A DNA stretch of 64,000 nt from a phage, in assembly GCA_014816185.1 (NCBI GenBank), contig GCA_014816185.1_4095.1; one strand, given 5' to 3'. The notes under the pieces are model-generated. The model ran no database searches. It saw only the letters and a list, made by a program, of their open reading frames with translations, and was not told where the DNA came from. The position numbers and the translations under genes were made by a program. Positions 27,342 through 47,538 of this stretch are shown here, one piece after another. Numbering within the stretch: the stretch's first letter is position 1; each line of letters opens with the position of its first letter.

Positions 27342-27401
27342 TTGCACCGTACTGATAAAAGCGTATAATGTTTTACATCGAGAGCGGGAACACTTCCCGC
27401 T
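27342..27401 (+). promoter_or_regulatory. PeSL-like cassette (early promoter + GGGAA/TTCCC stem-loop)
   Basis: TTGCAC 27342-27347, TATAAT 27364-27369, stem AGCGGGAA-cac-TTCCCGCT 27383-27401. Confidence 0.55.
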
Positions 27402-27424
27402 ACACATTAAGAGAGATTAAAACG

Positions 27425-27787
27425 ATGGCGACTCAAATCAATAAAATCATGCTTAACCTGGTAAACTTCCGCGAAGAGATGAAAGGTCTTCCGGCTGAAA
27501 CTGTAAAAATTCACATTGCAGCTTATCGGGAACTTATTGCAATGTTGCCGCTTAAGCGTGAACAATACGCCGCTACTTTGATGCTTGATTCAATGATCCA
27601 TGTAATGATCTCAAATGATTTAACGATGGTTTATCAGTACATGGGAGAAAATTTCGCGGTGTGTAGTAAGCCAGTACCAGGGATGGCAACTACTGAGGAA
27701 TTGCACGGTTTAAATTTAAAGCAAGATGCATGGGATAATATGCCTCGTTTCCTGGTATGGGCTGACAGTGGCAAAATTTACAAATAA
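27425..27787 (+). CDS. hypothetical protein
   Basis: start at ATG 27425 (MATQINK) after GAGAGA RBS; 120 aa. Confidence 0.5.
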   Translation: MATQINKIMLNLVNFREEMKGLPAETVKIHIAAYRELIAMLPLKREQYAATLMLDSMIHVMISNDLTMVYQYMGENFAVCSKPVPGMATTEELHGLNLKQDAWDNMPRFLVWADSGKIYK

Positions 27788-27801
27788 GTTTAATAAAGTA
27801 C

Positions 27802-27860
27802 TTGCATACTAAGTTAAAACAAGTATAATACTTTCTATCAGGTGGGGAATAGTTCCCCAC
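27802..27860 (+). promoter_or_regulatory. PeSL-like cassette
   Basis: TTGCAT 27802-27807, TATAAT 27824-27829, stem GTGGGGAA-tag-TTCCCCAC. Confidence 0.55.
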
Positions 27861-27879
27861 TATATAAGAGGATTAAAAA

Positions 27880-28119
27880 ATGGCTAAATCAAAAATGTTC
27901 TTAGGTCACAAAAACAAAACTCATTGGAATGTAAGCCTGTGGATTAATAACGATGAGGGATTGTATCGGTTGGCCCTGGATTTTATTAACGACAACACTA
28001 ATCGCAATGATGCGGCCCGTCATATGATGTTATTTTTAGAACAGACTGGACAAGATAAAACACCGGACGGATTCAAATATAGCACTACTGCGATCCGTGC
28101 GGCGATGGTTGGAATGTAA
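27880..28119 (+). CDS. hypothetical protein (paralog of 29918..30157)
   Basis: shares GHKNKTHWNVSLWINN..LYRLA and C-term TPDGFKYSTTAIRAAMVGM. Confidence 0.55.
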   Translation: MAKSKMFLGHKNKTHWNVSLWINNDEGLYRLALDFINDNTNRNDAARHMMLFLEQTGQDKTPDGFKYSTTAIRAAMVGM

Positions 28120-28204
28120 TAGAATTTATTTAAAGTACTATCATTTTTTGCGATAGTACTTTATAATAGTGTTTTATTCATACACCAACGATAAGGGTAA
28201 CAGC

Positions 28205-28471
28205 ATGAATATTAAGTATTTTGCGACGCGTGAACAAGCTCGGATCGCCGCACGCCAGGACGGGGCAACGTTTAAAGATATGGGCGTACAATCGGAACGT
28301 GGTAAACGTTGGGCCATTGTAAAGCGTAGTACCGCCAGATCATTACAGTACTGGTTAGCGGCCTTAAAAAGACCCGATAGTGTATCGCGACGAGTGGTAG
28401 AAATAAAGCTCGACCGAAAGGGCAACCGCGTGACCGTGTACCGTACTAAAAAGATTGCAGTACTTGAATAA
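28205..28471 (+). CDS. hypothetical protein (paralog of 41730..42125)
   Basis: start MNIKYFATRE; shares ATRE.ARI.AR..GA.FKDMG and DRKGNRVTVY. Confidence 0.55.
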   Translation: MNIKYFATREQARIAARQDGATFKDMGVQSERGKRWAIVKRSTARSLQYWLAALKRPDSVSRRVVEIKLDRKGNRVTVYRTKKIAVLE

Positions 28472-28478
28472 AAAGTAC

Positions 28479-28537
28479 TTGCAAACTATGTTTAATGGCG
28501 TATAATGTTTTACATCGAGAGCGGGAACACTTCCCGC
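28479..28537 (+). promoter_or_regulatory. PeSL-like cassette
   Basis: TTGCAA 28479-28484, TATAAT 28501-28506, stem GCGGGAA-cac-TTCCCGC. Confidence 0.55.
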
Positions 28538-28558
28538 CTATAACCTGGAGTAATAAAA

Positions 28559-28789
28559 ATGACTAATATGTATATGACTGAAGTTAAAACCGTAAAAGAT
28601 ACTACCACTAATAAAACTACTTACTTACAGCGGATCTGTGGTGTATGGCAACGTATCAGCAAATCAAAGTACTTTAAATTAACATCATATGCCAATCGTT
28701 CGGATTCATTCAGTACTGAAATAAAAGGTAATAAAGTACACCAATACGGCACTTATTATTATTATAGCCTGGACGCGATTGCAGTATAA
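28559..28789 (+). CDS. hypothetical protein
   Basis: 76-aa ORF. Confidence 0.45.
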   Translation: MTNMYMTEVKTVKDTTTNKTTYLQRICGVWQRISKSKYFKLTSYANRSDSFSTEIKGNKVHQYGTYYYYSLDAIAV

Positions 28790-29065
28790 GCAGTTTACAA
28801 ATCTTTACAATTGCCGGTATTGACTTATTTTGTCAGTACTGGCATAATGTATTCATTGGCAGATAAGCCGTAGCCCATAGGGTGCGGGAGTGTATCTATA
28901 GAAAAAGTAGTTTATTACAGTTACAATTGTGCACCCGGTGGGTTAGCTGTTGTCATGGGGTATATTATGCCAGTACTGGATAGTGCTGTCAATACCTTTT
29001 TACTATTCAGTACTGAAAACTATTTGATAAAAAGTACTTGCAAACTATGTTTAAAGGCGTATAAT

Positions 29066-29155
29066 GTTTTACATCAGGACGGGGAACGAAATAAGTAACT
29101 TCCCGTTAAGTAGCCCAGGAGTAAGGCACACGAAAAACTCCCCTGATAAAATAGT
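29066..29155 (+). ncRNA. candidate small structured RNA / long structured leader (copy 1)
   Basis: transcribed from promoter TTGCAA 29038-29043 / TATAAT 29060-29065; no ORF; ~85% identical to 40538-40614; followed by second promoter TTGACA 29156-29161 / TATAAT 29178-29183. Confidence 0.35.
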
Positions 29156-29215
29156 TTGACAAATGTTTTTAAAAGCGTATAATACTTACATCAACTACTG
29201 AATGAGGGTTACAAA

Positions 29216-29827
29216 ATGAAAACTATCACTACTACTACTTTCGTTATGGATTTTTCTGAATTGAACGCAGAACAACAAACGTCAGCTATCGAACTGGTTC
29301 GGGAACGTGAAAAAAACTTAAACGATGATTATTTTTCTGAAAGTGAAATTGAATACTATAAAGAAACAGTACTACCGGAATATGGCATTAATGACGCTGA
29401 TTTACGATTCAGTGGCTTTTGGTCCCAGGGTGACGGTGCATCAATCAGTACTGACCACGTTGACGCAGTGAAGTTTTTACGCAAGGTAAGAGCATTAACT
29501 AAGTATCGCTCAATCCGTCACCTGCTGAATGAAGATGATTTGGCGATGAGTGTAAAGCGTTCGCACTCCCACTACTCGCATGAGAACACTGTAAGCGGGT
29601 ACATTGAATCGGCTTACACTGATTTAACAGCAAAACAAGAAACGTTAGTTAATGAGCTTGAGGAACTACTCACTGACACTATTCGTGAATTGTCCCGCAA
29701 GTTGTACCGTGATTTAGAGAATGCATATGAGGATCAATTCACTACTGAAAACATTACGGCACTGATTGAGGGTAACGAATATCAATTCAATGTTATTGAT
29801 GGCGTAGTAGAATCAATCGAATATTAA
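29216..29827 (+). CDS. hypothetical protein
   Basis: 203-aa acidic protein; motif FSGFWSQGDGASIS. Confidence 0.55.
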   Translation: MKTITTTTFVMDFSELNAEQQTSAIELVREREKNLNDDYFSESEIEYYKETVLPEYGINDADLRFSGFWSQGDGASISTDHVDAVKFLRKVRALTKYRSIRHLLNEDDLAMSVKRSHSHYSHENTVSGYIESAYTDLTAKQETLVNELEELLTDTIRELSRKLYRDLENAYEDQFTTENITALIEGNEYQFNVIDGVVESIEY

Positions 29828-29839
29828 TTTAAAAAGTAC

Positions 29840-29899
29840 TTGCAAACTAAGTTTAAAAGCGTATAATACTTTATATCGAGGCGGGGAGTGGTTCCCCGC
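29840..29899 (+). promoter_or_regulatory. PeSL-like cassette
   Basis: TTGCAA 29840-29845, TATAAT 29862-29867, stem GCGGGGA-gtggt-TCCCCGC. Confidence 0.55.
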
Positions 29900-29917
29900 T
29901 CAAACGAGGATTTAAAA

Positions 29918-30157
29918 ATGGCTAGTACTAAAACTTACAACGGTCACAAAAACAAAACTCATTGGAATGTTTCCTTATGGATTAATAACGGTGAGTCATT
30001 GTATCGGCTTGCACAAAGTTGTATCGCACAAAGTAGAACTAAAGATATTGCAGCGGAATGTATGTACCGCAGATTAAAAGCCAACGGTACTACTACAACG
30101 CCGGACGGCTTTAAGTATAGCACTACTGCGATCCGTGCTGCAATGGTTGGAATGTAA
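29918..30157 (+). CDS. hypothetical protein (paralog of 27880..28119)
   Basis: start MASTKTYNGHKNKTHWNVSLWINN. Confidence 0.55.
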   Translation: MASTKTYNGHKNKTHWNVSLWINNGESLYRLAQSCIAQSRTKDIAAECMYRRLKANGTTTTPDGFKYSTTAIRAAMVGM

Positions 30158-30214
30158 TATTCAGTACTGAGATAATGGCGGGTAATAGTTCCCGCCTTTA
30201 CTGAGGGTTATCTA

Positions 30215-30502
30215 ATGAGTAAAGTAATAAAGTACAATGTGTTAAGCAAATCATTGTCTATCAGTGAATGCACCGATGGTTTTTGGCTATTTGATGAAAC
30301 GCGTGGAATGAATTTAGCTATGCGTGAGAAAACGGCTGAGGCCGCATATGTTGAGGCACTGGAATACTACCAGGAACGTTTAAAGGAAGTAGAAGAAGAT
30401 TATAAAAGCCTCAAAGCGAAAGTAGATCATTTCGTCGGTCAATTAGTGGAAGACAACGACGAGGACGGGCACTACTGCGACCGTTGCGGATCTTACAGTT
30501 AA
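30215..30502 (+). CDS. hypothetical protein
   Basis: 95 aa; C-terminal HYCDRCGSYS. Confidence 0.45.
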   Translation: MSKVIKYNVLSKSLSISECTDGFWLFDETRGMNLAMREKTAEAAYVEALEYYQERLKEVEEDYKSLKAKVDHFVGQLVEDNDEDGHYCDRCGSYS

Positions 30503-30519
30503 GTACTAAGGATTATATA

Positions 30520-30732
30520 ATGAGTGATTTAATTGAACGTATCAAAGAGCTTGAAGAAAAAGAATTGCAGTTGATCGGGTTACGGAATAAAGTATTCCAT
30601 GATTTAGGTGGCTTTATTAATGCCTGGGATAGTGGCGATCCTGATGCGTTACCTGCTAACCGCCAGGCGATGATCAATGATGTGCGTGGTGTCTTTGAGT
30701 ATGTTTTAAAAGTACTAGACACTAAGCAATAA
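30520..30732 (+). CDS. hypothetical protein
   Basis: start MSDLIERIKELEE at 30520. Confidence 0.45.
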   Translation: MSDLIERIKELEEKELQLIGLRNKVFHDLGGFINAWDSGDPDALPANRQAMINDVRGVFEYVLKVLDTKQ

Positions 30733-30793
30733 AGGCGTATAATACTTTATATTGGTACTGACAAACATTATAAGCGATTCAGGAGCTTTAATC

Positions 30794-30979
30794 ATGACAA
30801 CATTATCTGAGGTTATCCGCGAGCAAGCTGCAAAGGCTGGAATGACTGTTATCAATGTAGGGATCAAGATTGAGATCTCCCCTAACGAGTTGCAAGGGAT
30901 TCCCGATCCTACTAGCTGGGATCGTGCTGGGCGAATGATGCGTAATGCTTCATTACTGGACGGTACAAAATTTAATTAA
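30794..30979 (+). CDS. hypothetical protein
   Basis: start MTTLSEVIRE at 30794 after AGGAG. Confidence 0.45.
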   Translation: MTTLSEVIREQAAKAGMTVINVGIKIEISPNELQGIPDPTSWDRAGRMMRNASLLDGTKFN

Positions 30980-31063
30980 AAGTACTTGCAATTAGTTTTC
31001 AGTACTGTATAATGGTTTACATCAAAGGGAGAAATGGTTCTCCCTGGTAATGAGGAAAATACA

Positions 31064-31285
31064 ATGGCTAATATCACTACTCTTTCCCAACTGGAAGCAC
31101 TGGTTAAATCTATGCGGGAACATGCCGACAAAATCGGCGTACAAGATCCAGCCGTTTGCTTCTGCGACGAATTGAATGATGATACACTGGTAATAGCAGA
31201 AGTCCAGGACGTTTCTAACTATTCCTCGCGTTACACTGGCGGCGTAGCAAATAAAGGCGACTTCTGTTTATACCTTACAAAATAA
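31064..31285 (+). CDS. hypothetical protein
   Basis: start MANITTLSQ at 31064. Confidence 0.45.
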   Translation: MANITTLSQLEALVKSMREHADKIGVQDPAVCFCDELNDDTLVIAEVQDVSNYSSRYTGGVANKGDFCLYLTK

Positions 31286-31453
31286 CAACGCGGGGAGATA
31301 ATAACTCCCCGTTACTTTTTCAGTACTGAATCATTTAATAGACGGATATATGCACCCGGTGGGTTAGTGACTGTTTCGTCTTGATGTAGTAATTATGCCA
31401 GTACTGGATGCAGTTGTCAACAATTATTTTTCAAATACTTTTTATTAAAATAC

Positions 31454-31507
31454 TTGCAATTAGTTTTTAAACGCGTATAATGTTTTGCATAGGGGAGCGG
31501 TTCCCCT
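31454..31507 (+). promoter_or_regulatory. PeSL-like cassette
   Basis: TTGCAA 31454-31459, TATAAT 31476-31481, stem AGGGGA-gcggt-TCCCCT. Confidence 0.55.
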
Positions 31508-31527
31508 GGTAACTAAGGAATAAGAAA

Positions 31528-31764
31528 ATGCTCGAACAAATCAAATCAACGTCTGCGAATGTAACGGGAACGGTATCACACTTTACTAGTGATGAATCGC
31601 GTGGTGTTCCTTATTGTGCTGTACATGTAAACACTGAGGGTAACTACTGGTTTACGGTTTACGGATCATATTCATTTGGTCGGCCTGGACATCAAAAAAT
31701 CCTGGATAAAGTACAGCCAACGGGTAAAAATATCACTGCTGAAATGTTTTATAAAAAATCATAA
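31528..31764 (+). CDS. hypothetical protein
   Basis: 78-aa ORF. Confidence 0.45.
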   Translation: MLEQIKSTSANVTGTVSHFTSDESRGVPYCAVHVNTEGNYWFTVYGSYSFGRPGHQKILDKVQPTGKNITAEMFYKKS

Positions 31765-31847
31765 AGTACTTGATAATAGTTTTTAGTACTGTATAATATT
31801 TTACATCGCAAGGGGGAGCGGTTCCCCTGGTAACTAAGGATAATCAA

Positions 31848-32147
31848 ATGAAAATTGCAATCATCGCCCTGGCTTTATCTGTTTCCTCTTTCGCTGTTAA
31901 TGCGTCGTTAGATGTAAGTAGTGAAAAATTCATTCAGTGCACTGTAGCGATGACCAATGAAAGTACTGGCGAGATTGTTTTAAAGGATTTAGAGATCCAG
32001 CCAGAAGCATTTAAAAACGGGCCGTTCCATGAAGAAGACGAAAAAGGTAGCACGACAATTTATTACGATGCAAGTACTAAACGCGGTTCGGTTACTGTTA
32101 TGGATACTGAGAAAGTAACGCATTCCGGCGTTATTAATTGCCGTTGA
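31848..32147 (+). CDS. secreted/periplasmic small protein (signal peptide)
   Basis: N-terminus MKIAIIALALSVSSFAVNA then SLD, a typical Sec signal. Confidence 0.5.
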   Translation: MKIAIIALALSVSSFAVNASLDVSSEKFIQCTVAMTNESTGEIVLKDLEIQPEAFKNGPFHEEDEKGSTTIYYDASTKRGSVTVMDTEKVTHSGVINCR

Positions 32148-32168
32148 TAGATACTACGGGGTAACATC

Positions 32169-32399
32169 ATGACAGCACGAATAGTTTTACTTAACGAAAG
32201 CAGTACTACACAACTCCTTAACGCCGTGCATTATGATATTGAAACGAGCGTTAATCTTATCAGTACTGTCGTACTGTTGGACACTGGAAAGGTCGCCAAT
32301 GATAAAGCGATTGCAGGTATACTAACGGATCTTGAGCCTGGTAGCAGTGCATCAATAACGTTAAATGGTAAAGTGTTTAACATTTTACTTACTGATTAA
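32169..32399 (+). CDS. hypothetical protein
   Basis: 76-aa ORF. Confidence 0.45.
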   Translation: MTARIVLLNESSTTQLLNAVHYDIETSVNLISTVVLLDTGKVANDKAIAGILTDLEPGSSASITLNGKVFNILLTD

Positions 32400-32405
32400 G
32401 TACAT

Positions 32406-32431
32406 AGCCCACCTGGTGGGCTTTTTTGTTT
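32406..32431 (+). terminator. intrinsic terminator
   Basis: GCCCA-cctgg-TGGGC followed by TTTTTTGTTTTT. Confidence 0.6.
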
Positions 32432-32632
32432 TTATAGTATCGTAGTACTGAGATACTTTGAAAATAGTTTTAAGAAAGTAGTTGACATTACCACAGAAAA
32501 GCGTAGAATGTATTACATCAAGACGGGGAGCACTAAGTAGACCGCCAGTAAGTCGAACGAAAAACTGGACACGTCGAGAAAACTTTGATACACTAATAAA
32601 CGTAAACTAAACTTTAATTGAGGATTTATAAA

Positions 32633-33115
32633 ATGGCTAATGTAAAATCATTCATCAAAGCACTGGTAGCAAATGAAACTAACGTCGCGGCTGAGATCCT
32701 GGCTGAACTGGATAACGATACCATGAAAGCGGTACGCAATAATTTTAACATCGCGTACAGTACTGCGAAAGAACTACAAGCAAATAAAGCGGCAGAAATT
32801 GAAGCGGCAAAGGCGGCCCGTGAAGCAGAACTACAAGCAACAATCGAAAGTATTCAGGCGGCAGTAGTTGGATTGGATCTGGAAGTAGTTACAGAGATGG
32901 CACAAAAAGCCCTGGCGGTTAAGTATGGGGAAGACAAGCCAGAAGTAAAAGCCAAAAAATGGATTCAGGAACGCGTAGCGGTAGTACTGGACAACGGGGA
33001 AGAATATCTGATTCCGGTGCGTGGTAACTGCATTGCGGTAGTACTGGATGCGATTAACTCCAGTGGTATGACTCGCGAGGAATGGATCGAAGCTCATCGC
33101 AAAGTTGAAGCATAA
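32633..33115 (+). CDS. hypothetical protein
   Basis: start MANVKSFIKA at 32633; Ala/Glu-rich helical middle. Confidence 0.5.
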   Translation: MANVKSFIKALVANETNVAAEILAELDNDTMKAVRNNFNIAYSTAKELQANKAAEIEAAKAAREAELQATIESIQAAVVGLDLEVVTEMAQKALAVKYGEDKPEVKAKKWIQERVAVVLDNGEEYLIPVRGNCIAVVLDAINSSGMTREEWIEAHRKVEA

Positions 33116-33136
33116 CAATTAAAGTACTGAATCACT

Positions 33137-33165
33137 AGCCCACTGTATAAGTGGGCTTTTTTGTG
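33137..33165 (+). terminator. intrinsic terminator
   Basis: AGCCCAC-tgtataa-GTGGGCT followed by TTTTTTGTG. Confidence 0.6.
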
Positions 33166-33389
33166 TTTATCGTTTACCAGGCCACCAGCACCGCCTAGAA
33201 TCGATTCTAACGCATTAAACTGATTATCTGATGCATTGCCCTAGCTGGTGGCGTTAAGGTCGTTAGAATGCGATTGAGAGCGTTTAAAGTATTTTGCAAA
33301 AAGTAATAAAAAGTACTTGCACGATTAAGAGATTAGCGTATAATTAATTACATCAAGGCGAGACACCTTAACTAACTGAGGATATAAAG

Positions 33390-33542
33390 ATGAATACTTA
33401 TGAACTGGATTGTTTTACTTTACAAGTAATGTCAGTATGCAGTAAGAAAGATTGGTCATCAAAGGAATTTAAAGCAGTTATCGCGTGTGCAAAACACGGC
33501 AAGACTATCAATGAAACGGCATCAATCATTGATAAACTTTAA
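33390..33542 (+). CDS. small protein (50 aa)
   Basis: MNTYELDCF..; below track threshold; preceded by promoter-like TTGCAC..TATAAT. Confidence 0.35.
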   Translation: MNTYELDCFTLQVMSVCSKKDWSSKEFKAVIACAKHGKTINETASIIDKL

Positions 33543-33550
33543 AAAATAGT

Positions 33551-33579
33551 TTGACAATAGTTTTAAGTACTGGCATAAT
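33551..33579 (+). promoter_or_regulatory. early-type promoter TTGACA-17-CATAAT
   Basis: TTGACA 33551-33556, CATAAT 33574-33579. Confidence 0.45.
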
Positions 33580-33611
33580 ACATACATCAACTACTGAATA
33601 GGAATTAAAAA

Positions 33612-33839
33612 ATGGCTATTATCATTACTCGCGTATCTGGTACTACTGGCAACGAACAAGTAGTTGCAGTCATTACCAACAAGGAAGGTGCGGAATTGCA
33701 AAATGCAATGAATACCTGGGCCGTTAATGAGTTCGGTCAGTGGGCAAGTGTAGCATACATTGAAACCTATCAAGTGCCGTCGATTAGTTTAACTGATTTG
33801 GGCGTTGAGCGTATCCTTTGCCTTGATGAATTAAATTAA
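33612..33839 (+). CDS. hypothetical protein
   Basis: 75 aa MAIIITRVSG. Confidence 0.5.
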   Translation: MAIIITRVSGTTGNEQVVAVITNKEGAELQNAMNTWAVNEFGQWASVAYIETYQVPSISLTDLGVERILCLDELN

Positions 33840-33924
33840 AAAAGTACTTGCAAAGTAAATCGAATAAAGTATAATACATTACATCAAGGGGAGAAATGGT
33901 TCTCCCCACTACAAGGAAACTAAA

Positions 33925-34068
33925 ATGAAAACTTGTCAATGTGGTCAGAAATCTATTACGGGTTTAAAGCGGGGCGTTGCACTTTGCCAGTACCATTATA
34001 ATTTACAAGTATGGGGTAAAGAATGGGCCGACCAGGTGGAAGCAGCAAAGAAAGAAAAAAGTAAGTAA
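33925..34068 (+). CDS. small Cys-containing protein (47 aa)
   Basis: MKTCQCGQKS..ALCQYHY; read from sequence. Confidence 0.35.
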   Translation: MKTCQCGQKSITGLKRGVALCQYHYNLQVWGKEWADQVEAAKKEKSK

Positions 34069-34087
34069 AAATATTATCACAGTACTA

Positions 34088-34116
34088 TTGACATAGTTTG
34101 ATAGTACTGGCATAAT
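34088..34116 (+). promoter_or_regulatory. early-type promoter TTGACA-17-CATAAT (copy 1 of 70-bp direct repeat)
   Basis: 34065-34135 nearly identical to 34359-34429, including the 3' codons of the preceding gene. Confidence 0.45.
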
Positions 34117-34149
34117 AGATTTTATCAAGACAACTAAGGGGAAACAATA

Positions 34150-34362
34150 ATGGCTATCATTACTAAAATCAAAGTTAACAAGACTATCGTTAAACTGGCA
34201 GAAGTGAAAGAAGGTTATAAAGTATCTTGGTGCGGTATGTATCGGACGTTCGCAGATATAGATGATGCAATCAATTACTACACTGACACGGTTAAAAACT
34301 TTGTTCGTGCTGATGTGGTTATGGCAGTGGCAACATATAAAGCAGCGAAAGAAAGTAAGTAA
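34150..34362 (+). CDS. hypothetical protein
   Basis: 70 aa MAIITKIKVNK. Confidence 0.5.
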   Translation: MAIITKIKVNKTIVKLAEVKEGYKVSWCGMYRTFADIDDAINYYTDTVKNFVRADVVMAVATYKAAKESK

Positions 34363-34381
34363 AAATATTATCACAGTACTA

Positions 34382-40678: not shown

Positions 40679-40954
40679 ATGCGGATTCTACTGACAGCTA
40701 ACGAAATCGAGCAAGTACTGACTACTAACCTGGAAGACTGGAAACGTGAAGCAGATATCCAGGCGGTTCAACAGCTTAACGATGAGTTAACGCCGGATGA
40801 CTTAAGCAAGATTGTAGATCCTCAATTCTACGAAGATATCCACGACACCGCGTTAAGCGTCGAGGATGTACTAGATAAGCACTACATTGATATTGATTTG
40901 CAGGTGTACGGTCGTAAAAACTTTATCACTATTCACGACATTTACAACAATTAA
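40679..40954 (+). CDS. hypothetical protein
   Basis: 91-aa acidic ORF. Confidence 0.5.
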   Translation: MRILLTANEIEQVLTTNLEDWKREADIQAVQQLNDELTPDDLSKIVDPQFYEDIHDTALSVEDVLDKHYIDIDLQVYGRKNFITIHDIYNN

Positions 40955-41039
40955 GTATTGACAAAGTATCTTAGTACTGTATAATAGTTTACATCGAGAG
41001 GGGAATGGTTCCCCTCCTAACTAAAAGAGAGAAATAAAA

Positions 41040-41222
41040 ATGGCTAAGTGCACTATCTGTAATAAAGAAATAGTATTAGTTCCAAGTGCCCGTGAACGTG
41101 CCGCTCGGTTCGGTGGCAAAGCGTCAGACTATACAAAAATGTTTACTGCCCATACAGCTTGCCAGGTAGCAAAACGTTCACAAGAAAGCGTAGAATTAAT
41201 GCGTAAACTTTCCAAAAAATAA
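41040..41222 (+). CDS. small Cys-containing protein
   Basis: MAKCTICNKEIV..TACQ; 60 aa. Confidence 0.45.
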   Translation: MAKCTICNKEIVLVPSARERAARFGGKASDYTKMFTAHTACQVAKRSQESVELMRKLSKK

Positions 41223-41310
41223 GTATTGACAAAGTATCTTAGTACTGTATAATAGTTTACATCAAGTGAGGGGAAACGGTTCCCCTCCTAACAAAGAGAG
41301 AGAAATAAAA

Positions 41311-41634
41311 ATGGCTATGATCCTTGCCCAGAAAGTAGAACTGAAAATTGTAACCTCCTTTGACATTAAAGTTAATCGGTGGACTGATTCACACGGCAAT
41401 ACTTACCACTCTTGCTACGTGTCTGCGTTAATTGGTGATCGTTGGGAAGACCTGGGACATGAAACCTTTACATACGGTTACGGCACACAAGGAGAATACA
41501 CGGGCTTGGAGATCATTAAAGAAACCGTTATAGGTTTCAACCCGAAAGAAAACGTTATTCACCGCATCGAGGAAGAGATCAACAAAGAAATAACAGTTCG
41601 ATACTACGATGTAAAACGTAAGAAAGATATGTAA
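41311..41634 (+). CDS. hypothetical protein (paralog of 34454..34777)
   Basis: start MAMILAQK; shared NTYHSC motif. Confidence 0.55.
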   Translation: MAMILAQKVELKIVTSFDIKVNRWTDSHGNTYHSCYVSALIGDRWEDLGHETFTYGYGTQGEYTGLEIIKETVIGFNPKENVIHRIEEEINKEITVRYYDVKRKKDM

Positions 41635-41729
41635 TAGAATCCATTTAAAGTACTATTTGACATTGCCCAGATAGTACTTTATAATAGACTCTAACTTGTA
41701 GTACTAACTTAACTAATAGGATGTATACC

Positions 41730-42125
41730 ATGATTACTAAATTCTACGCTACCCGTGAAGCTGCCCGTATTGTTGCACGCGAGGAAGGAGCAGCATTTAA
41801 AGACATGGGCAAAGATGCACCGAAAGGCCAACGCTGGGCCGTACAGTTCAAAGAAATCTCTGATATTGTGAATTCACCGGAGCCAGTACTAACAGCATCA
41901 GAACTAAAACGAGCGGATTTACTGGCGGCAGTACTTAACGCACAAGATGAATTTATCGCTGATTCTGATATCAAAGTACAGACAAACCATACCGCTTGGA
42001 CTCACGCGGATCACCTGGCAAACCTTAAGCGTCCAAGTGAACTGGTTCGCAACCAGAAAGAGATCCGACACGACCGTAAGGGTAATCGTGTAACAGTATA
42101 CAGTAAACGCCGCCAGGTTATCTAA
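41730..42125 (+). CDS. hypothetical protein (paralog of 28205..28471)
   Basis: start MITKFYATRE 9 nt after AGGA. Confidence 0.55.
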   Translation: MITKFYATREAARIVAREEGAAFKDMGKDAPKGQRWAVQFKEISDIVNSPEPVLTASELKRADLLAAVLNAQDEFIADSDIKVQTNHTAWTHADHLANLKRPSELVRNQKEIRHDRKGNRVTVYSKRRQVI

Positions 42126-42147
42126 TAACTTGCAGTACTAACAACAC

Positions 42148-42172
42148 GGCGGGATCAGTTCCCGCCTTTTTT
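42148..42172 (+). terminator. intrinsic terminator
   Basis: GGCGGGA-tcagt-TCCCGCC followed by TTTTTT. Confidence 0.55.
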
Positions 42173-42187
42173 ATAGGATAAACTAAA

Positions 42188-42442
42188 ATGATTAAGGTAC
42201 AACTATCTAAAGATAATATCTTGCGGGTACACTATAAAGCACCACAGAGAATCATCACAAAGGCCGTACAGCTTGCTAATGAGTTTATTAATGGTAACCT
42301 ATTACCAAGGAAGTTAAGCAACGGAAAACTGCGTGTAATCGATGTAGACACTAACAACAGAATAGTAATTGAGAACACAGGAAAGATAAACCTATATGAA
42401 CACCAACAATATAATAAGAAAATAAAACTAATATCACGTTGA
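42188..42442 (+). CDS. hypothetical protein
   Basis: 84-aa ORF. Confidence 0.45.
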   Translation: MIKVQLSKDNILRVHYKAPQRIITKAVQLANEFINGNLLPRKLSNGKLRVIDVDTNNRIVIENTGKINLYEHQQYNKKIKLISR

Positions 42443-42495
42443 CAGTACTCAATTGTTTTAGTATTATGTACACATACCAACACGGGAGAAACAAA

Positions 42496-42714
42496 ATGAA
42501 ATTATCTAAAATCGAAAAGAAAACTATTGATGAAGCAGTTAAGCACGGTTATACCTTTCGTAATGATTCACATTTTACCAATTTTCAACAAGGCCAAAGG
42601 ACTATTAAAAAACTAATTGACAAAGGTTTATTAGTTAAAGTAGATAACGGTAACGGCATTGAGTATCAGCCAACCCAAGACGCATTATCTTTAAAGAAAT
42701 ATGCAATTATCTAA
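42496..42714 (+). CDS. hypothetical protein
   Basis: start MKLSKIEKK; upstream promoter region duplicated before next gene. Confidence 0.45.
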   Translation: MKLSKIEKKTIDEAVKHGYTFRNDSHFTNFQQGQRTIKKLIDKGLLVKVDNGNGIEYQPTQDALSLKKYAII

Positions 42715-42771
42715 TTGACAGTACTCAAATGTTTTAGTACTATATGTACATACCAACACGGGGAAAACAAA

Positions 42772-43014
42772 ATGATTACTTTAGAAAAACGTATCAAAGA
42801 AACTACATCGCTGGTGGAACTGTTAACAGTACTGAAATGCCGTACTACTCGGTTTAGTACACCGGACTTTATTAATATGGTTGATGTTAACGGTCGTTAT
42901 CGCATTGCAGTAGAACATGGAACAGCGAAAGTATTCAGTACTAAAAACACTAAGGAAGTGATTCACGCGGTTAGTGTGAAAAAAGTGGTTGCCATTGATA
43001 GTAAAGTACTGTAA
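42772..43014 (+). CDS. hypothetical protein
   Basis: start MITLEKRIKE; same upstream promoter repeat as previous gene. Confidence 0.45.
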   Translation: MITLEKRIKETTSLVELLTVLKCRTTRFSTPDFINMVDVNGRYRIAVEHGTAKVFSTKNTKEVIHAVSVKKVVAIDSKVL

Positions 43015-43045
43015 GATAGTTTCATTAACTCAAGGAGAACATGCA

Positions 43046-43630
43046 ATGCGTAATTATACTAAATTCATCCGTACCCTGTCAGAAATGGAAACCAACAAAG
43101 AGATCCTTTCAGCTTGTCGGTTAGCTGGTCTGGAGATCATCGGTGCGGGTTCTTCCCGTATTGTATTCGCTTTAAATGTTCGGTTAGTGATTAAGGTCGC
43201 CAATTGTGATGCGGGTGTAGAACAAAATGAAACTGAATGTAAGGTATGGAATTTTTTAGACTATGACCGCCCTCAATTGAAACAGTACTTTGCAAAGGTG
43301 CATATGCATTTATGCGATCCTGATAATATGTTTATCGTTATGGATCGGTTGAGTACTGCAAGTAAAGGCAGTGTGAAGCACGTTAACGCGTGCAACGAAT
43401 TAAAGTACAATATTAAACGTAATGCCATTGAACGCCAGCACCGCTTTGCTGATGCACTACAACACGTCGATGATACATTATCAACACTAACGATAAGAGA
43501 TATCAGAAAACAGAATATCGGCCAGGATCGTAATGGACTTATTAAAGTACTTGATTACGGTTTAACCCGCAATATCTGGAATCAGTACTATAAAAAGCGT
43601 GATGTGGCAGCAAGTAAAGTAACACGATAA
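43046..43630 (+). CDS. minimal eukaryotic-like protein kinase (ePK-fold) candidate
   Basis: Gly-loop IIGAGSSRIVF, beta3 Lys in LVIKV, catalytic loop IRDIRKQN (RD..N spacing as in HRDLKPxN), IKVLDYG matching the DFG region; only ~195 aa so C-lobe truncated. Confidence 0.5.
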   Translation: MRNYTKFIRTLSEMETNKEILSACRLAGLEIIGAGSSRIVFALNVRLVIKVANCDAGVEQNETECKVWNFLDYDRPQLKQYFAKVHMHLCDPDNMFIVMDRLSTASKGSVKHVNACNELKYNIKRNAIERQHRFADALQHVDDTLSTLTIRDIRKQNIGQDRNGLIKVLDYGLTRNIWNQYYKKRDVAASKVTR

Positions 43631-43644
43631 AAAAGATTAAAAAA

Positions 43645-43735
43645 GGGATTGATTTCGGTCAGTCCCTTTGCTATTATATATTCATTGAGAGATAGCTCAC
43701 TGACCCACAGGGTGCATAAATGTATCTATTATATA
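43645..43735 (+). promoter_or_regulatory. composite element: UUCG hairpin/promoter + conserved segment
   Basis: GGGATTGAT-TTCG-GTCAGTCCC; downstream ATTCATTGAGAGATAGCTCACTGACCCACAGGGTGCA. Confidence 0.5.
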
Positions 43736-43852
43736 AGTATTCAGTACTGAAAACTATTTTTAAAAAGTACTTGCATTGTACTTAGAATCAAGTATAATGT
43801 TTTATATCGAGAGGGGGGGGAACGGTTCTCCCTGGCAATAAGGAATAAAATC

Positions 43853-44074
43853 ATGACTACAATGACTTGCATTTACGCTTCCAATCTTCTGAATGATGCG
43901 GCCTTTAATGTTGATTCAGAATATCAATGTTATCGGGATGAAAATAAAAAAGTTTTTGTAGTTGATAATAATGGTTTCCATATTGAATTACAATCCGGCT
44001 TCACTGGTGTTGATGGTAAATCAGTATGGGGCGTACAGGATGATAACGGTACATATCATTTTAAACGTAATTAA
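43853..44074 (+). CDS. hypothetical protein
   Basis: 73-aa ORF. Confidence 0.45.
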   Translation: MTTMTCIYASNLLNDAAFNVDSEYQCYRDENKKVFVVDNNGFHIELQSGFTGVDGKSVWGVQDDNGTYHFKRN

Positions 44075-44157
44075 GTATTGACAAAGTATATTAGTACTGT
44101 ATAATAGTTTACATCAAGGGGAGAACTATTCTCCCCGATACTAAAAGGAATAAAATC

Positions 44158-44565
44158 ATGACTACTACTAATCAAGCTCGGTCCATCGCCAACGATAAAA
44201 ATCATGCTGCAATGGTCGCTGGTTACATTGAAGCTATGCAATTCAGTACTGTACACAATGAGAACGGCGATTACCTGGAAGATTATGAATTATCAGAGCA
44301 AGCCCATCAAGCGGCAGTGATTGCATGTTCACGTTTCCTTGCTGTACATGGTGAAGATATGGAAACAGTACAAAAACACCATAATCCTGATTATACTTAT
44401 AGTCATGCAGGTCATGATCTATTTCTTACTCGCGAAGGTCACGGCACTGGTTTTTGGGATCGTGATATCGGTCACTATGATGATATATTCACTAAGTACT
44501 GCGAAGAAATCAACGTTTGCGATCCCTATGTAGGCGATGATAATTTAATCTATATGGGCGAATAA
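44158..44565 (+). CDS. hypothetical protein
   Basis: 135 aa; motif HAGHDLFLTREGHGTGFWDRD. Confidence 0.5.
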   Translation: MTTTNQARSIANDKNHAAMVAGYIEAMQFSTVHNENGDYLEDYELSEQAHQAAVIACSRFLAVHGEDMETVQKHHNPDYTYSHAGHDLFLTREGHGTGFWDRDIGHYDDIFTKYCEEINVCDPYVGDDNLIYMGE

Positions 44566-44652
44566 AAGTATTTGACAAAGCATATCAGTACTGTATAATA
44601 GTTTACATCAAGGGGAGAATAGTTCTCCCCGATACTAAAAGGAAACAAAATT

Positions 44653-44925
44653 ATGTCTAGCTACTCCGCTACTATGATCATTAAAGATATGAACGGTAAT
44701 CCTACTTCTGCTGGTGGATCATTTGGAAACATTAACTTAGATGGTCGGTTATCAATTGAATCAGCCATCAATGCAGCGAAAGAAGTTTTTAAGAATGAAT
44801 GTACTGTTAGTAAGCTGGATTATATGGGATTCGCTATCGAGAAAACTAATCGTTTTGTGAACTACAAAAATCCACTGATGATTGATACTAACCTGAAAGC
44901 TAACGAAGTGGAATACTTATTATGA
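44653..44925 (+). CDS. hypothetical protein
   Basis: 90-aa ORF. Confidence 0.45.
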   Translation: MSSYSATMIIKDMNGNPTSAGGSFGNINLDGRLSIESAINAAKEVFKNECTVSKLDYMGFAIEKTNRFVNYKNPLMIDTNLKANEVEYLL

Positions 44926-45113
44926 CAGTTGAAGAAGTTAAAAAAGTACTGGCAGTACTACGCTATCATAACCATTGCAAGGTTAAGAATGATCCTGATT
45001 ATGTTGATTCATCCCTGGAGGAAGACACATTAAACGCAATAAGCCATATGCAAACATTAGCAAAGCGTATGACCGAAAAGAATAGACCGGACTATATCGG
45101 AAATAAAATTTAA
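44922..45113 (+). CDS. hypothetical protein
   Basis: 63 aa; ATGA coupling. Confidence 0.4.
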   Translation: MTVEEVKKVLAVLRYHNHCKVKNDPDYVDSSLEEDTLNAISHMQTLAKRMTEKNRPDYIGNKI

Positions 45114-45199
45114 AAAGTACTTGCATTGTAGTTAGATTAACGTATAATGTTTTACATAGAGCGGGGGAATAGTTCTCCCGCCAGTCCGGGAGATACACC

Positions 45200-45463
45200 A
45201 TGAACACTATCGAAATCACTATCAATGCACACGTATACGACAACGTAGTACTGCAAACTACTATGACCGCTAATGATACCAGTACTTTGCGGAATACCGT
45301 TGTAAGTGCTGTATGTGCTGCAATCGGTGATGTAGCCCTGGAAAATGCAAAACACGTAAACGATGGTTTCACTATGTGCAAACGTGATAACGCAAAACAT
45401 ATCATCGTAGAAGGTTACGGCGGTGTAGAATTTAATGTTTATTTGAAAAAAGTACTTGCATAA
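45200..45463 (+). CDS. hypothetical protein
   Basis: 87-aa ORF. Confidence 0.45.
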   Translation: MNTIEITINAHVYDNVVLQTTMTANDTSTLRNTVVSAVCAAIGDVALENAKHVNDGFTMCKRDNAKHIIVEGYGGVEFNVYLKKVLA

Positions 45464-45530
45464 TAACTAAAACAAAGTATAATGTTTTGCATAGGGGGAG
45501 ATATCCTCCCCCACTAAAAGGAGTACTAAA

Positions 45531-45755
45531 ATGGCTAACTTTGATGAACTGATGCGGGAAGTAGCTAACCTGGCAGAAGAGAAGAAATCATTCGATTCTA
45601 TCTATAACACCGCTCACCGTGATTCAGTACTGTCATGTACTCAGGATCAAAAAGATGAACTAATCGCCACATATCATGAAGCATGGAAGTACTACCGCCA
45701 ATGGGAGAAAGAAGAAAGTGAGTCTATCATTGACGGCCTCAATAATCTAATCTAA
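45531..45755 (+). CDS. hypothetical protein
   Basis: 74-aa ORF. Confidence 0.45.
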   Translation: MANFDELMREVANLAEEKKSFDSIYNTAHRDSVLSCTQDQKDELIATYHEAWKYYRQWEKEESESIIDGLNNLI

Positions 45756-45830
45756 AGTTTTATTTCAGTACTATTGACATAGCTTGATAGTACTGATGTA
45801 ATAACTTTACTAACTACAAGGGGAAACATA

Positions 45831-46088
45831 ATGGAACAGTTCACACAATATCGGGTAAATCCTCAAGCTATGGCCTACGTAGAAGACCATAAAACGTTAC
45901 CAGTACTGCAACCAGTTAAAGGCCATATCTATCGTGCAATGTCGTGGAGTACGGCCCAGGATGGCTATAAAACCGTAGCTGTCGGTATGTACTGCGGTAA
46001 TGGTGAATGGTTTGATCCAAATAATCCGGTCGCCGTTGACAGTACTGAAAAAATGAAATGGGCCGACTACATCGAAGATATTTCATAA
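45831..46088 (+). CDS. hypothetical protein
   Basis: 85-aa ORF. Confidence 0.45.
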   Translation: MEQFTQYRVNPQAMAYVEDHKTLPVLQPVKGHIYRAMSWSTAQDGYKTVAVGMYCGNGEWFDPNNPVAVDSTEKMKWADYIEDIS

Positions 46089-46178
46089 AAACTATTTGAC
46101 AGTACTAACCAGTAATGTATAATGTTTTACATCGAGCGGGGGAATAGTTCTCCCGTCAATAGTTTGGAGTAAAACATT

Positions 46179-46379
46179 ATGTCTATCGCTATCGCCCTGG
46201 TCGAAGTACTGAAAGAAGCTAAAGCCAACCTTATCGATGTACAGATTAAGGAATTGCAAAACGGCTTAATCGGCTGTACTTGTACCGCTGGTGGAGCGGC
46301 AGACTATCGGGAATTCGAATCACTTGAATCGATGGTCCGGTATCTTACAATCATCGTAGAAGATTGGAGAATCATCTAA
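46179..46379 (+). CDS. hypothetical protein
   Basis: 66-aa ORF. Confidence 0.45.
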   Translation: MSIAIALVEVLKEAKANLIDVQIKELQNGLIGCTCTAGGAADYREFESLESMVRYLTIIVEDWRII

Positions 46380-46398
46380 CAAAAAAGAATAAAAAAAA

Positions 46399-46480
46399 GG
46401 GATTGACTCCGGTCAGTCCCTTTGCTATTATATACGCATAGACAAAAACTAGCCCACAGGGTGCATAAGTGTATCCAAAA
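46399..46480 (+). promoter_or_regulatory. composite element: UUCG hairpin/promoter + conserved segment
   Basis: GGGATTGAC-TCCG-GTCAGTCCC; CCCACAGGGTGCATAAGTGTATC downstream. Confidence 0.5.
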
Positions 46481-46646
46481 TATATAGTTAATAACGGTGA
46501 GTAACTATCTGCTGGTGGATGTACTGCCAGTACTCAAGGGAACTAAAACTATTAATAAAAAGTATTGACAAAGTATATCAGTACTGCAATAATGTATCTC
46601 GTAGGGCGGCAATGGTGCGACGGTCCACAAAGTTAGGAGATTCAAA

Positions 46647-46979
46647 ATGAGTACTTCAATCGCTATCGTTAAAGCTTTCATCCGTACCAATGTTTCATCT
46701 GTATTCATCGACGGTCTGGATCGGGAAGTAGAATACTCAATCATTATCGCACAGACTGCAAACGGTGCTCGGTATATCCTTAATGATAGTGAAGCAAATC
46801 ACTACTACTTCACTAAAGCTACTGGCTTTAAACGCATCGATGCTGACGTAGTATACGCTAAGATGAATAAGCTGGTAGACAAGATTAACGCGAAAGGTAC
46901 TATCGATTTACAGTACTGGACCGAAACCGATCCAGAATATGGTTCTCACCGCTATCTGAATCCAGGTATTAAAATGTAA
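46647..46979 (+). CDS. hypothetical protein
   Basis: 110-aa ORF. Confidence 0.5.
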   Translation: MSTSIAIVKAFIRTNVSSVFIDGLDREVEYSIIIAQTANGARYILNDSEANHYYFTKATGFKRIDADVVYAKMNKLVDKINAKGTIDLQYWTETDPEYGSHRYLNPGIKM

Positions 46980-47068
46980 AAAGTACTTGCATAGTACTTA
47001 GAATCAAGTATAATGTTTTACATAGAGAGGGGGAAATGGTTCTCCCTCCTAAATTAAGGAGTTTTATC

Positions 47069-47470
47069 ATGACCTTCTCAATCAATTCCTTCGCTGACGT
47101 TTTAGTACTGGCTCGGACTTTTGGTAAAGATGCACTGGAGTACGCTGTAAGTAATGGTACTATCCAACCGGAACAGTGCCGCATCATTGGAAACTGCAAA
47201 CGTTGGGCGGTATCCAATACTATTGCACTGGAAAACTTCCACGATGGCAACAATGAATATTCTGTTGATGTAGTATTCGAAGCCGTTGATCTCGGCGGTA
47301 TCTATAATACTAACCTGAATGATGTGCGTATCGTTCGCACGGGGTTCGGTGCTTATGATGTATCTATCCGTGAAGCTATGGACAACGGATACATTAGCAA
47401 GGACTTACTTGCTCACATCATGCAGCTGTGTACGGAACGTAACGAAGCACGCACTATCTTAGGACTGTAA
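47069..47470 (+). CDS. hypothetical protein
   Basis: start MTFSINSF at 47069. Confidence 0.5.
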   Translation: MTFSINSFADVLVLARTFGKDALEYAVSNGTIQPEQCRIIGNCKRWAVSNTIALENFHDGNNEYSVDVVFEAVDLGGIYNTNLNDVRIVRTGFGAYDVSIREAMDNGYISKDLLAHIMQLCTERNEARTILGL

Positions 47471-47538
47471 GCGTTACACATCACCAAACATCATAGGCCG
47501 CCTTGTAGCGGCCTTAACTATATCAGGAGGGCATACAT

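Follow-up and report, generated by a model that had tools for sequence, protein, structure and literature searches.

Promoter-hairpin cassettes in a long terminal repeat

We have analysed a 64,000-nt stretch of phage DNA (contig GCA_014816185.1_4095.1 of GenBank assembly GCA_014816185.1), here called the window, which includes some 20 kb filled with small genes. There are about 56 of these, all on the + strand, encoding mostly orphan proteins of 47 to 203 aa. Many are preceded by nearly the same intergenic unit, in which a strong σ70-type promoter is followed by a hairpin, a Shine-Dalgarno (SD) sequence and the ATG. We term this unit a cassette. An earlier examination of the letters (the sequence-only reading) had placed about 57 genes at 27342–47530, each behind such a unit, and had likened the units to the promoter-early stem-loop (PeSL) cassettes of T4-type phages. 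The repeated unit is real and the number of genes is about right, but the count of units was overstated: the complete unit precedes only 24 genes, less than half of the total.

The source phage is an Asteriusvirus (PBECO4/121Q-like) jumbo coliphage. Megablast of 27342–35342 (115 phage records) gave best matches to genomes of 350–385 kb, viz. CMSTMSU, PBECO4, SP27, 121Q, G17, Sharanji, vB_Ec-M-J and fEgEco12, with identities to Asteriusvirus genomes of 89–97% in mosaic pieces. This places the window in Asteriusvirus; the phage is not of the T4 type.

In vB_Ec-M-J, fEgEco12 and ELP-22 the match begins 2–3 kb from the left end of the record, and bases 1–21525 of the vB_Ec-M-J record are annotated as "Direct Terminal Repeats" (DTR). 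The DTR of fEgEco12 is 20,993 bp, as confirmed by PhageTerm and restriction digests, and its authors expect repeats of ~20 kb throughout the group (PMC13070987). Probes from both ends of the vB_Ec-M-J DTR land at positions 25685 and 47899/47900 of the window. Judged by these probes and by the fEgEco12 DTR, the 22.2-kb span 25685–47899 (+ strand) is the counterpart, in the window, of this long repeat. It holds all the cassettes, and 27342–47530 falls inside it. The sequence-only reading had overlooked that the stretch would be the phage's long direct terminal repeat, i.e. its early-gene module. Gene layout switches at the right boundary. Within the repeat the intergenic spacing is 80–90 nt, and directly past it the genes overlap by 4 nt (47968–48195, 48192–48392 and onward). 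The G+C content is 0.36–0.41 inside the repeat compared with 0.31–0.35 in the adjoining flanks.

Nearly all of the gene products belong only to PHROG families of unknown function. About seven genes have Pfam domains, including a DksA/TraR zinc finger, a GNAT acetyltransferase, a ParE-like domain and several domains of unknown function (DUFs). The stretch is thus rich in small genes, with promoters that are strong and of the host type and with ribosome sites that are likewise strong. The distant relative PA5oct has a 39-kb DTR with 105 genes, many of them highly transcribed early by RNA-seq, together with two highly expressed non-coding RNAs (PMC7318152). The terminal region of SPO1, 12.4 kb long, harbours a host-takeover module of 26 genes, which are small and have strong promoters and ribosome sites (PMC6873191). 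In the related phage CBB, RpoD-like promoters with UP-like elements have been predicted, chiefly in the early region and in the terminal repeat; stem-loops are unmentioned (PMC5259590). Because the promoters here are of the host σ70 type, and given the parallels with PA5oct and SPO1, transcription of the DTR genes is likely to be early. Host σ70 RNA polymerase would transcribe them from at least 38 near-consensus promoters. We consider that the stretch is probably an early-gene module of the host-takeover type, contained in a DTR of roughly 22 kb and both driven and shuffled by its cassettes.

A motif search across the window places the repeated unit far above chance. The sequence AGTACTTGCA is present in 20 copies where 0.15 are expected, 18 of them on the + strand between 27337 and 46991. 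TATAATNNTTTACAT, allowing up to one mismatch, is present in 29 copies (0.87 expected), 28 of them on the + strand between 26072 and 47023. A strict promoter scan using the pattern TTGHHN-N16-17-[TC]ATAAT found 38 + strand promoters in 25685–47899, compared with a mean of 0.76 in 200 Markov-random sequences. Near-consensus σ70 promoters in the stretch therefore number at least 38. In the same scan a promoter combined with a GGG/CCC hairpin was found 22 times, and not once in the 200 random sequences; there was no such unit in the 42 kb of the window outside the DTR, nor on the − strand. Five relatives were fetched with their flanks for comparison, giving six genomes in all. Each relative has 16–24 promoter-plus-hairpin units, every one inside the DTR-equivalent and on the + strand only.

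The + strand genes were curated by the presence of good ribosome sites, each intergenic region was inspected, and hairpins were searched for. Class A comprises the 24 genes behind a complete unit of promoter and hairpin. In class B, of about 11 genes, the promoter (often with TGgCATAAT) is followed by a short leader that lacks a hairpin, and about 20 of the total have no promoter of their own. Another group of promoters in the stretch, 13 on the + strand and 4 on the − strand, drive non-coding elements. The TTGACA and CATAAT variants pointed out by the sequence-only reading are confirmed, and the three hairpins that it quoted lie at 27383, 27841 and 36530.

The upstream half of the cassette has the consensus (T)AAAAAGTAC-TTGCAA (or TTGACA), a 16-nt spacer, TATAAT, gTTTTAC and ATC(G/A)AG. 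The downstream half comprises the hairpin, C(A/T)CTAA..., AAGGA or GAGGA, 6–9 nt and the ATG. The promoters as a whole range over an A-rich flank, TTGCAA or TTGACA, a spacer of 16–17 nt, and TATAAT or TGgCATAAT; the A-rich flank usually contains the stop codon of the upstream gene. The beginning of the transcript can be predicted by analogy with T7 A1. The cassette reads TATAAT-GTTTTAC-ATCGAGAG(C)GGGAACAC, and the A1 region reads GATACT-TACAGCC-ATCGAGAGGG (ATCGAGAGGGACAC), an exact match to T7 462–537. The A1 start site is the A at position 498. The two have in common near-consensus hexamers and the same transcript start (ATCGAGAG) 7 nt from the −10, although A1 is a single promoter serving a long early operon and is not a repeated linker. 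For the cassette, transcription is predicted to begin at the A of the conserved ACATC/ATCGAG, which lies 8 nt beyond the −10.

Given that start, the class A 5′ untranslated regions (UTRs) are 39–50 nt long. Each leader is predicted to contain one hairpin, beginning at +4 to +7, with a stability of −8 to −16 kcal/mol and a mean z of −3.35 against shuffles. Downstream of the hairpin the leader is unpaired in the predicted fold, including the SD and the AUG. Class B leaders are 22–38 nt and unstructured (mean z = +0.44). The mRNA of a class A gene would thus present 4–6 free nucleotides at its 5′ end, a hairpin of 6–9 bp with a G-rich and a C-rich arm, an A-rich unpaired leader with the SD, and the AUG.

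All class A cassettes are on the + strand. The first lies at 27334–27424 (gene 27425–27787) and has the hairpin AGCGGGAAcacTTCCCGCT. The next, at 27794–27879 (gene 27880–28119), is the place where relatives have an extra gene between two copies, and it is followed by cassettes at 28471–28558 (gene 28559–28789), 29832–29917 (gene 29918–30157) and 30978–31063 (gene 31064–31285). That at 31446–31527 (gene 31528–31764) is one of the partners where 121Q and TH47 have lost gene 31528. Beyond it are cassettes at 31762–31847 (gene 31848–32147) and 33840–33924 (gene 33925–34068), one at 35649–35735 (gene 35736–35882) with an imperfect hairpin containing one A.C, and others at 35878–35963 (gene 35964–36116), 36481–36567 (gene 36568–36909) and 36917–37004 (gene 37005–37217). 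The cassette at 39040–39122 (gene 39123–39311) has a degenerate −10, TTATAG. After those at 39661–39745 (gene 39746–39958) and 39958–40044 (gene 40045–40218), the cassettes at 40950–41039 (gene 41040–41222) and 41218–41310 (gene 41311–41634) are recombination partners of each other. So are the cassettes at 43763–43852 (gene 43853–44074) and 45113–45199 (gene 45200–45463), which bound a four-gene indel relative to TH47. Between them, the cassettes at 44070–44157 (gene 44158–44565) and 44564–44652 (gene 44653–44925) are replaced by one chimera in PBECO4. The remaining three are at 45448–45530 (gene 45531–45755), 46088–46178 (gene 46179–46379) and, the last one, 46979–47068 (gene 47069–47470).

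The class B promoters, also on the + strand, begin with one at 29156–29215 (gene 29216–29827) that has an unstructured 25-nt leader. Others are at 33317–33389 (gene 33390–33542), 33551–33611 (gene 33612–33839; extended −10 TGgCATAAT), 37246–37310 (gene 37311–37490), 37518–37589 (gene 37590–37733), 38631–38687 (gene 38688–39044), 40619–40678 (gene 40679–40954) and 41657–41729 (gene 41730–42125). A hairpin-less promoter TAGACA-16-TATAAT is found at 30716–30793 (+; gene 30794–30979). Two promoters lie in an exact 74-bp repeat on the + strand, which confirms a duplication noted earlier in this part of the sequence. Copy 1 (34058–34131) has a class B promoter and precedes gene 34150–34362, and the promoter in copy 2 (34352–34425) precedes gene 34454–34777. 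The paralogous gene pairs that the sequence-only reading had proposed are real, with identities of 63% for 27880/29918, 36% for 28205/41730 and 36% for 34454/41311.

Descent and recombination of the cassettes

In 40 promoter pairs the identity of the 16-nt spacers is 75% or more, where 0.09 pairs are expected, and the spacers fall into six families. Since spacers are under little sequence constraint and still match in so many pairs, the cassettes are related by descent. They are also mosaic. The promoters at 31454 and 35657 are identical and have different hairpins, while those at 31454 and 31770 have hairpin and leader in common and differ in their spacers.

We searched for insertions and deletions (indels) by chaining BLAST alignments of the window against the five relatives. 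At least 12 unique gene-sized indels, one of them of four genes, have 45–108 bp of cassette homology at the junction. In the pattern observed, the junction in the shorter genome shows homology to either end of the extra segment, and the homologous piece is the cassette. These indels lie at 27797–27876, 31490–31762, 34134–34352, 35700–35873, 36480–36574, 40607–40661, 41046–41214, 42499–42715, 44169–44566, 43817–45109, 45159–45447 and 46552–46618. Three junctions were aligned base by base (that of PBECO4 by MAFFT), revealing chimeric cassettes. The single cassette of PBECO4 has an upstream flank and spacer like those of 44078, and a loop and leader like those of 44572. The 121Q junction is a patchwork of cassettes 40958 and 41226. 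ECO103 4-12-1 has one copy of the 74-bp repeat, and gene 34150 is missing. Any direction, gain or loss, assigned to a recombination event is tentative.

The expected coincidence of synteny breakpoints with cassettes therefore holds for these 12 or more indels, but not for about 12 other events, in which the junction overlap is no greater than 13 bp (e.g. 33357–33600, 38641–39062 and 39311–39661). Roughly half of the indels are thus without junction homology, and recombination between cassettes is not the sole route. Where it does operate, the cassettes would supply patches of ~45–110 bp of homology between otherwise unrelated genes. Homologous recombination between two of them would delete, insert or swap one or a few genes, leaving behind a functional chimeric cassette.

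The look-alike units might instead have converged independently on the σ70 optimum, the genes being turned over by illegitimate recombination with selection against breakpoints inside genes. Every strong promoter does indeed resemble TTGACA-17-TATAAT, and the indels lacking junction homology would be expected on this basis. Yet convergence on the hexamers leaves the 40 matching spacer pairs unaccounted for, and the long overlaps and the chimeric cassettes at the junctions are directly visible. Convergence is largely refuted by the descent of the spacers and by the chimeric junctions, and we regard it as extremely improbable.

The cassettes extend beyond Asteriusvirus. A 93-nt cassette query matched 57 phage records. 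Records that include both DTR copies have 14–21 cassette places, and the other Asteriusvirus-type records among the matches listed have 6–10, which is what confinement of the cassettes to the repeat would give. No T4-type phage is among the matches listed for this query against the phage collection. In phage W70 (rV5-like, Vequintavirinae, 137 kb) the match spans the promoter, the hairpin and the SD, and in phi92-like phages and RaK2-like Klebsiella phages it covers the promoter half. W70 has homologues of 13 DTR genes behind the same cassettes, with 30–93% amino-acid identity and in a different order. Its homologue of gene 31528 lies behind a different promoter and the AGCGGGAAcacTTCCCGCT hairpin, which in the window belongs to gene 27425 and, in a near-identical form, to gene 28559. 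In muut (phi92-like, Justusliebigvirus) a promoter half identical to that of cassette 40958 of the window is joined to another hairpin, and there are several more promoter-hairpin-SD units of muut's own type. Genes of the DTR family 29918 are found in 292 phage records from many genera. From the arrangements in W70 and muut it follows that genes and cassettes assort independently in at least three families of large virulent coliphages, and shuffling apparently acts across phage families. A more speculative proposal, which we advance only tentatively, is that the cassettes are the linkers of an integrase-free exchange network connecting Asteriusvirus, Vequintavirinae and Stephanstirmvirinae. 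The common unit would let any small early gene pass between these unrelated families by homologous recombination at co-infection and be expressed at once, and the G-arm-first hairpin and the AGTACT sites (see below) would perhaps be read by phage factors for shut-off or for targeted recombination.

The hairpin of the 5′ untranslated region

Four genomes yielded 36 distinct hairpin sequences, with stems of 6–9 bp and loops of 3–5 nt. The G4 and C4 blocks are 7–12 nt apart. The outer pairs vary in step, so that AGC...GCT, GAG...CTC, GTG...CAC and GCG...CGC all occur. The orientation is the same in all 36 hairpins as well as in those of W70 and muut, with the G-rich arm on the 5′ side and the C/U-rich arm on the 3′ side (e.g. 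33888–33907 and 44118–44136). Many of the 5′ arms contain GGAG.

Evolutionary rates were compared over 86 orthologous cassette pairs. The −10 has the lowest rate at 0.012 substitutions per site, followed by the −35 (0.033) and the stems (0.047). Third codon positions (0.078), spacers (0.085) and loops (0.128) change faster, so that the rate in stems is about 2.7 times below that in loops. Among the unique stem changes between orthologues there were 4 double compensatory changes, 14 that were compatible with wobble pairing (G-C or A-U to G.U and back), 5 giving A.C and 7 others. The 14:5 division between wobble and A.C has a one-sided binomial probability of ~0.03, from few events, some of which are at helix ends. 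In a covariance-model alignment of 38 distinct hairpins 99.3% of cells are paired, and four of the eight base pairs change on both sides. The covariation score was 0.300, compared with 0.182 in shuffles (none of 500 reached 0.300) and 0.09–0.15 with slid partners.

These statistics come from a hairpin-anchored comparison together with the covariance-model alignment; RNAalifold applied to a plain MAFFT alignment of whole cassettes gave a weak consensus, with the hairpins out of register. The hairpin model was searched at 1.5e-4, and at E up to 1 it returned a mixture of + and − strand matches to the same palindromes. A scan of 25000–48500 against Rfam 15 gave no match at the gathering score, and three sub-threshold chance matches at E up to 1. 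ARAGORN found no tRNA genes.

From this comparative evidence we conclude that the hairpin functions as a structure of the RNA, within the 5′ UTR. Its most likely role, proposed with less assurance than the early-module reading, is a stabilising or insulating one at the 5′ end, with the ribosome site left open. It would act on the RNA as a 5′ stabiliser, or as an insulator by which the ribosome site stays accessible regardless of the upstream sequence, and it may perhaps also be a barrier to 3′ exonucleases on read-through transcripts.

Three other roles must be set against this. The hairpin could be a terminator or attenuator of read-through from upstream, making each gene an insulated transcription unit, in keeping with the PeSL definition. 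The hairpins are G+C-rich and intergenic, and PeSL stem-loops are reported to be effective transcription terminators (PMC2839356). Here, in contrast, the 8 nt after the hairpin contain only 0–3 T in all 24 cassettes. A terminator scan of 25600–45500 picked up no cassette hairpin, while it did find terminators with T-runs. These are a terminator-like hairpin followed by a T-run at 31290–31312, which contrasts with those of the cassettes, and intrinsic terminators at 32406–32422 (AGCCCACCTGGTGGGCT-TTTTT), 33137–33157 (followed by a T-run) and 42148–42166 (GGCGGGatcagTTCCCGCC-TTTTTT), all on the + strand. Moreover the hairpin sits at about +5 to +30 of the gene's own transcript, and termination there would abort expression of that gene. 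With no T-run behind it the hairpin does not have the form of an intrinsic terminator and was rejected as one, and we think a terminating or attenuating role very unlikely. The inverted repeat could alternatively function as DNA, either as the operator of a dimeric repressor shutting off the early promoters or as a cruciform or target of a recombination enzyme that would make the cassettes mobile. It is a palindrome with conserved half-sites, placed where a roadblock repressor would sit, and a homologue of T4 endonuclease VII has been reported in the related phage CBB (PMC5259590). Yet the variable distance between the half-sites and the variable loop length do not suit the fixed geometry of a dimer, and the dimer operator was rejected on that ground. 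Single-sided stem changes favour G.U over A.C, and a G.U pair in RNA is a mismatch in a DNA palindrome. Crossovers are spread over the segment from promoter to hairpin, and not focused at one point. A role at the DNA level seems to us no more probable than termination.

A better case can be made for recognition by a phage RNA-binding protein or endoribonuclease, which would allow the early mRNAs to be shut off or processed jointly at the early-to-middle transition, as by T4 RegB and RegA. The hairpin is limited to genes of the terminal repeat, and its GGGGA.../...TCCCC core is kept with the G-arm 5′ in all the hairpins including those of W70 and muut, which is beyond structural need. GGAG, present in many of the 5′ arms, is the target of T4 RegB. 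Against this, the core could have been conserved by common descent alone. The loops vary freely and evolve fastest, which would be unusual for a protein that reads the loop, and among the proteins of the repeat, nearly all of unknown function, no candidate factor was identified. We consider recognition of this kind unlikely, if less so than the two preceding roles.

Apart from the indels that lack junction homology, several points count against the reading of the stretch as a cassette-driven early module with stabilising hairpins. For this particular genome the DTR status is deduced from homology to its relatives, and the timing and the start sites are those suggested by analogy. The asymmetry between wobble and A.C changes is only suggestive. 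The covariation counts derive from sequences related by descent, and the covariance-model alignment, being also fitted to the structure, provides corroboration only. Classic 5′-terminal stabilisers, as known from work on ompA, tolerate fewer unpaired nucleotides before the stem, and the 4–6 nt here, if transcription starts where predicted, exceed what they accept. Lastly, the G-arm-first orientation is left unexplained by stability alone, and hints at a sequence-specific constraint.

Comparison with known systems and further elements of the region

PeSLs were defined as an A-rich flank, σ70 promoter, GGGG...CCCC stem-loop, SD and ATG in front of small orphan genes (Arbiol 2010, PMC2839356), and are known in the T4-type phages RB49/phi1, PST/T4 and nt-1/KVP40 (PMC2839356; Comeau 2014, PMC4122927). 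The 24 units described here have the same composite intergenic anatomy of A/T-rich flank, strong early promoter, stem-loop, SD and ATG. They too front small orphan genes in a hyperplastic region, and in both systems indels between close relatives are accounted for by recombination between units that leaves chimeric units. The formation of circular gene-plus-unit mini-circles during infection also belongs to the description of PeSLs. The differences are that the phage is an Asteriusvirus and the units are confined to the long terminal repeat, that the hairpin is fixed in the 5′ UTR whereas in PeSLs it takes five variable positions, and that it has no T-run, making a terminator role unlikely. 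The identification of the units as PeSLs thus stands as to the composite anatomy and the recombination linkers, but not as to a T4-type host phage or a terminator-like hairpin. The unit is a PeSL in anatomy and in proposed evolutionary role, in a setting outside the T4-type phages and with a terminator function unlikely.

A different arrangement is seen at 36349–36390 (+), where a terminator and a promoter overlap. The −35 TTGACT lies within the 5′ arm of the hairpin, and is followed by the T-run and the −10 TATTAT. More such units are at 40376–40417, 43642–43683 and 46396–46437, and also at 1250–1290 and 2664–2704. In these the G+C hairpin GGGATTGACTccggTCAGTCCC holds the −35 in its 5′ arm, and the T-run precedes the −10. 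Their geometry is nearer to that of the classic PeSL classes than is that of the 24 hairpin cassettes.

SPO1 (genes 37–60) and PA5oct resemble the present phage in having a long terminal repeat full of small genes, mostly of unknown function. In SPO1 there are likewise strong host-type promoters and ribosome sites, and in PA5oct the repeat is highly transcribed early and also yields non-coding RNAs. In contrast to the arrangement here, the SPO1 genes are in operons, and the portions of the SPO1 and PA5oct descriptions that we consulted contain no standardised promoter-hairpin-SD cassette or cassette-mediated gene turnover. The T5 pre-early genes are a further early module in a long terminal repeat. 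The 5′ stabilisers of the ompA type resemble the cassettes in having a stable hairpin near the 5′ end and an unpaired leader with the ribosome site; they differ as to the 4–6 predicted unpaired nucleotides that precede the stem here, where stabilisation is putative. The morons of lambdoid phages are also single genes with their own promoters, but they have no conserved flanking homology and are thought to have been inserted by illegitimate recombination (PMC2839356).

Neither the cassettes nor the AGTACT enrichment described below is mentioned in the Asteriusvirus literature that we searched, a search that fell short of most subscription-journal papers, and in the literature searched PeSLs are discussed for T4-like phages only. 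The present data extend the PeSL concept past the T4-type phages, with chimeric junctions seen directly at the sequence level. They show the organisation of a 20-kb repeat in widely isolated therapeutic jumbo coliphages that is now annotated almost wholly as "hypothetical protein". Three phage families appear to draw on a common pool of small early genes behind interchangeable cassettes. The cassettes are ready-made strong early expression units and natural landing sites for phage engineering, and they indicate in advance where in the genome therapeutic isolates that are nearly identical elsewhere will vary.

The palindrome AGTACT, often as CAGTACTG, occurs 282 times in the window where about 21.6 copies are expected, a 13-fold excess; the next most enriched 6-bp palindrome is at 2.6-fold. 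In the DTR the excess reaches about 20-fold, compared with 12-fold in 1–25.7 kb. Copies lie for example in 25630–47500 and 52000–56000, and there are none in 48–52 kb and 56–63 kb. Five relatives are equally enriched. AGTACT is found in all three reading frames, and is therefore a DNA-level signal. In 33 of the 38 DTR promoters it stands at one of two fixed places, abutting the −35 or the −10. The palindromes CCATGG, AGGCCT, AGCGCT, ACCGGT and CGATCG each have no copy in the window where 6.6 are expected. This is consistent with avoidance of restriction sites, the opposite of the excess of AGTACT.

The first 1.6 kb of the DTR-equivalent (25685–27340) is apparently non-coding. It contains about 20 units of 8-bp period resembling RGAYGGCT (26440–26600), an exact 34-bp direct repeat (27224–27257 and 27277–27310), numerous copies of CAGTACTG and promoters on either strand. 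An origin is one possible function, and a role in packaging or at the terminus another. To its left, window 1–25600 has a negative GC skew consistent with − strand genes. The left DTR flank of PBECO4 and 121Q has an annotated tandem family of at least 10 RCC1-like "DNA condensation" paralogues on the opposite strand. Past the right boundary, from 47968 to 52000 and beyond, there is a long promoterless array of genes of ~65–75 aa with 4-nt overlaps, free of AGTACT in 48–52 kb. In 121Q and vB_Ec-M-J a homologous array past the DTR boundary spans more than 5 kb.

Two kinds of non-coding element were found in the repeat. In the first, ten strong promoters are each followed, ~25 nt on, by a conserved box CCCA-nn-GGGTG(C) and no open reading frame. 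Six copies are on the + strand (28820–28900, 36356–36440, 38041–38125, 40383–40460, 43649–43730 and 46403–46480) and four on the − strand (26770–26850, 26985–27065, 28915–28992 and 31340–31420); those at 28820 (+) and 28992 (−) are convergent and would overlap. They had no match in Rfam, and at most a weak 7-bp hairpin is predicted. We regard them as candidate small RNAs or protein-binding sites. Elements of the second kind have a cassette-type promoter and, after it, non-coding DNA of about 85 nt (29038–29160 and 40503–40623) or 116 nt (32482–32632). All three stretches are closed by a 6-bp end-to-end helix AUCAGG...CCUGAU, in which one compensatory change is seen. The two copies of 85 nt are directly followed by another promoter, which drives the next gene. 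The AUCAGG...CCUGAU element is also present in W70 and muut.

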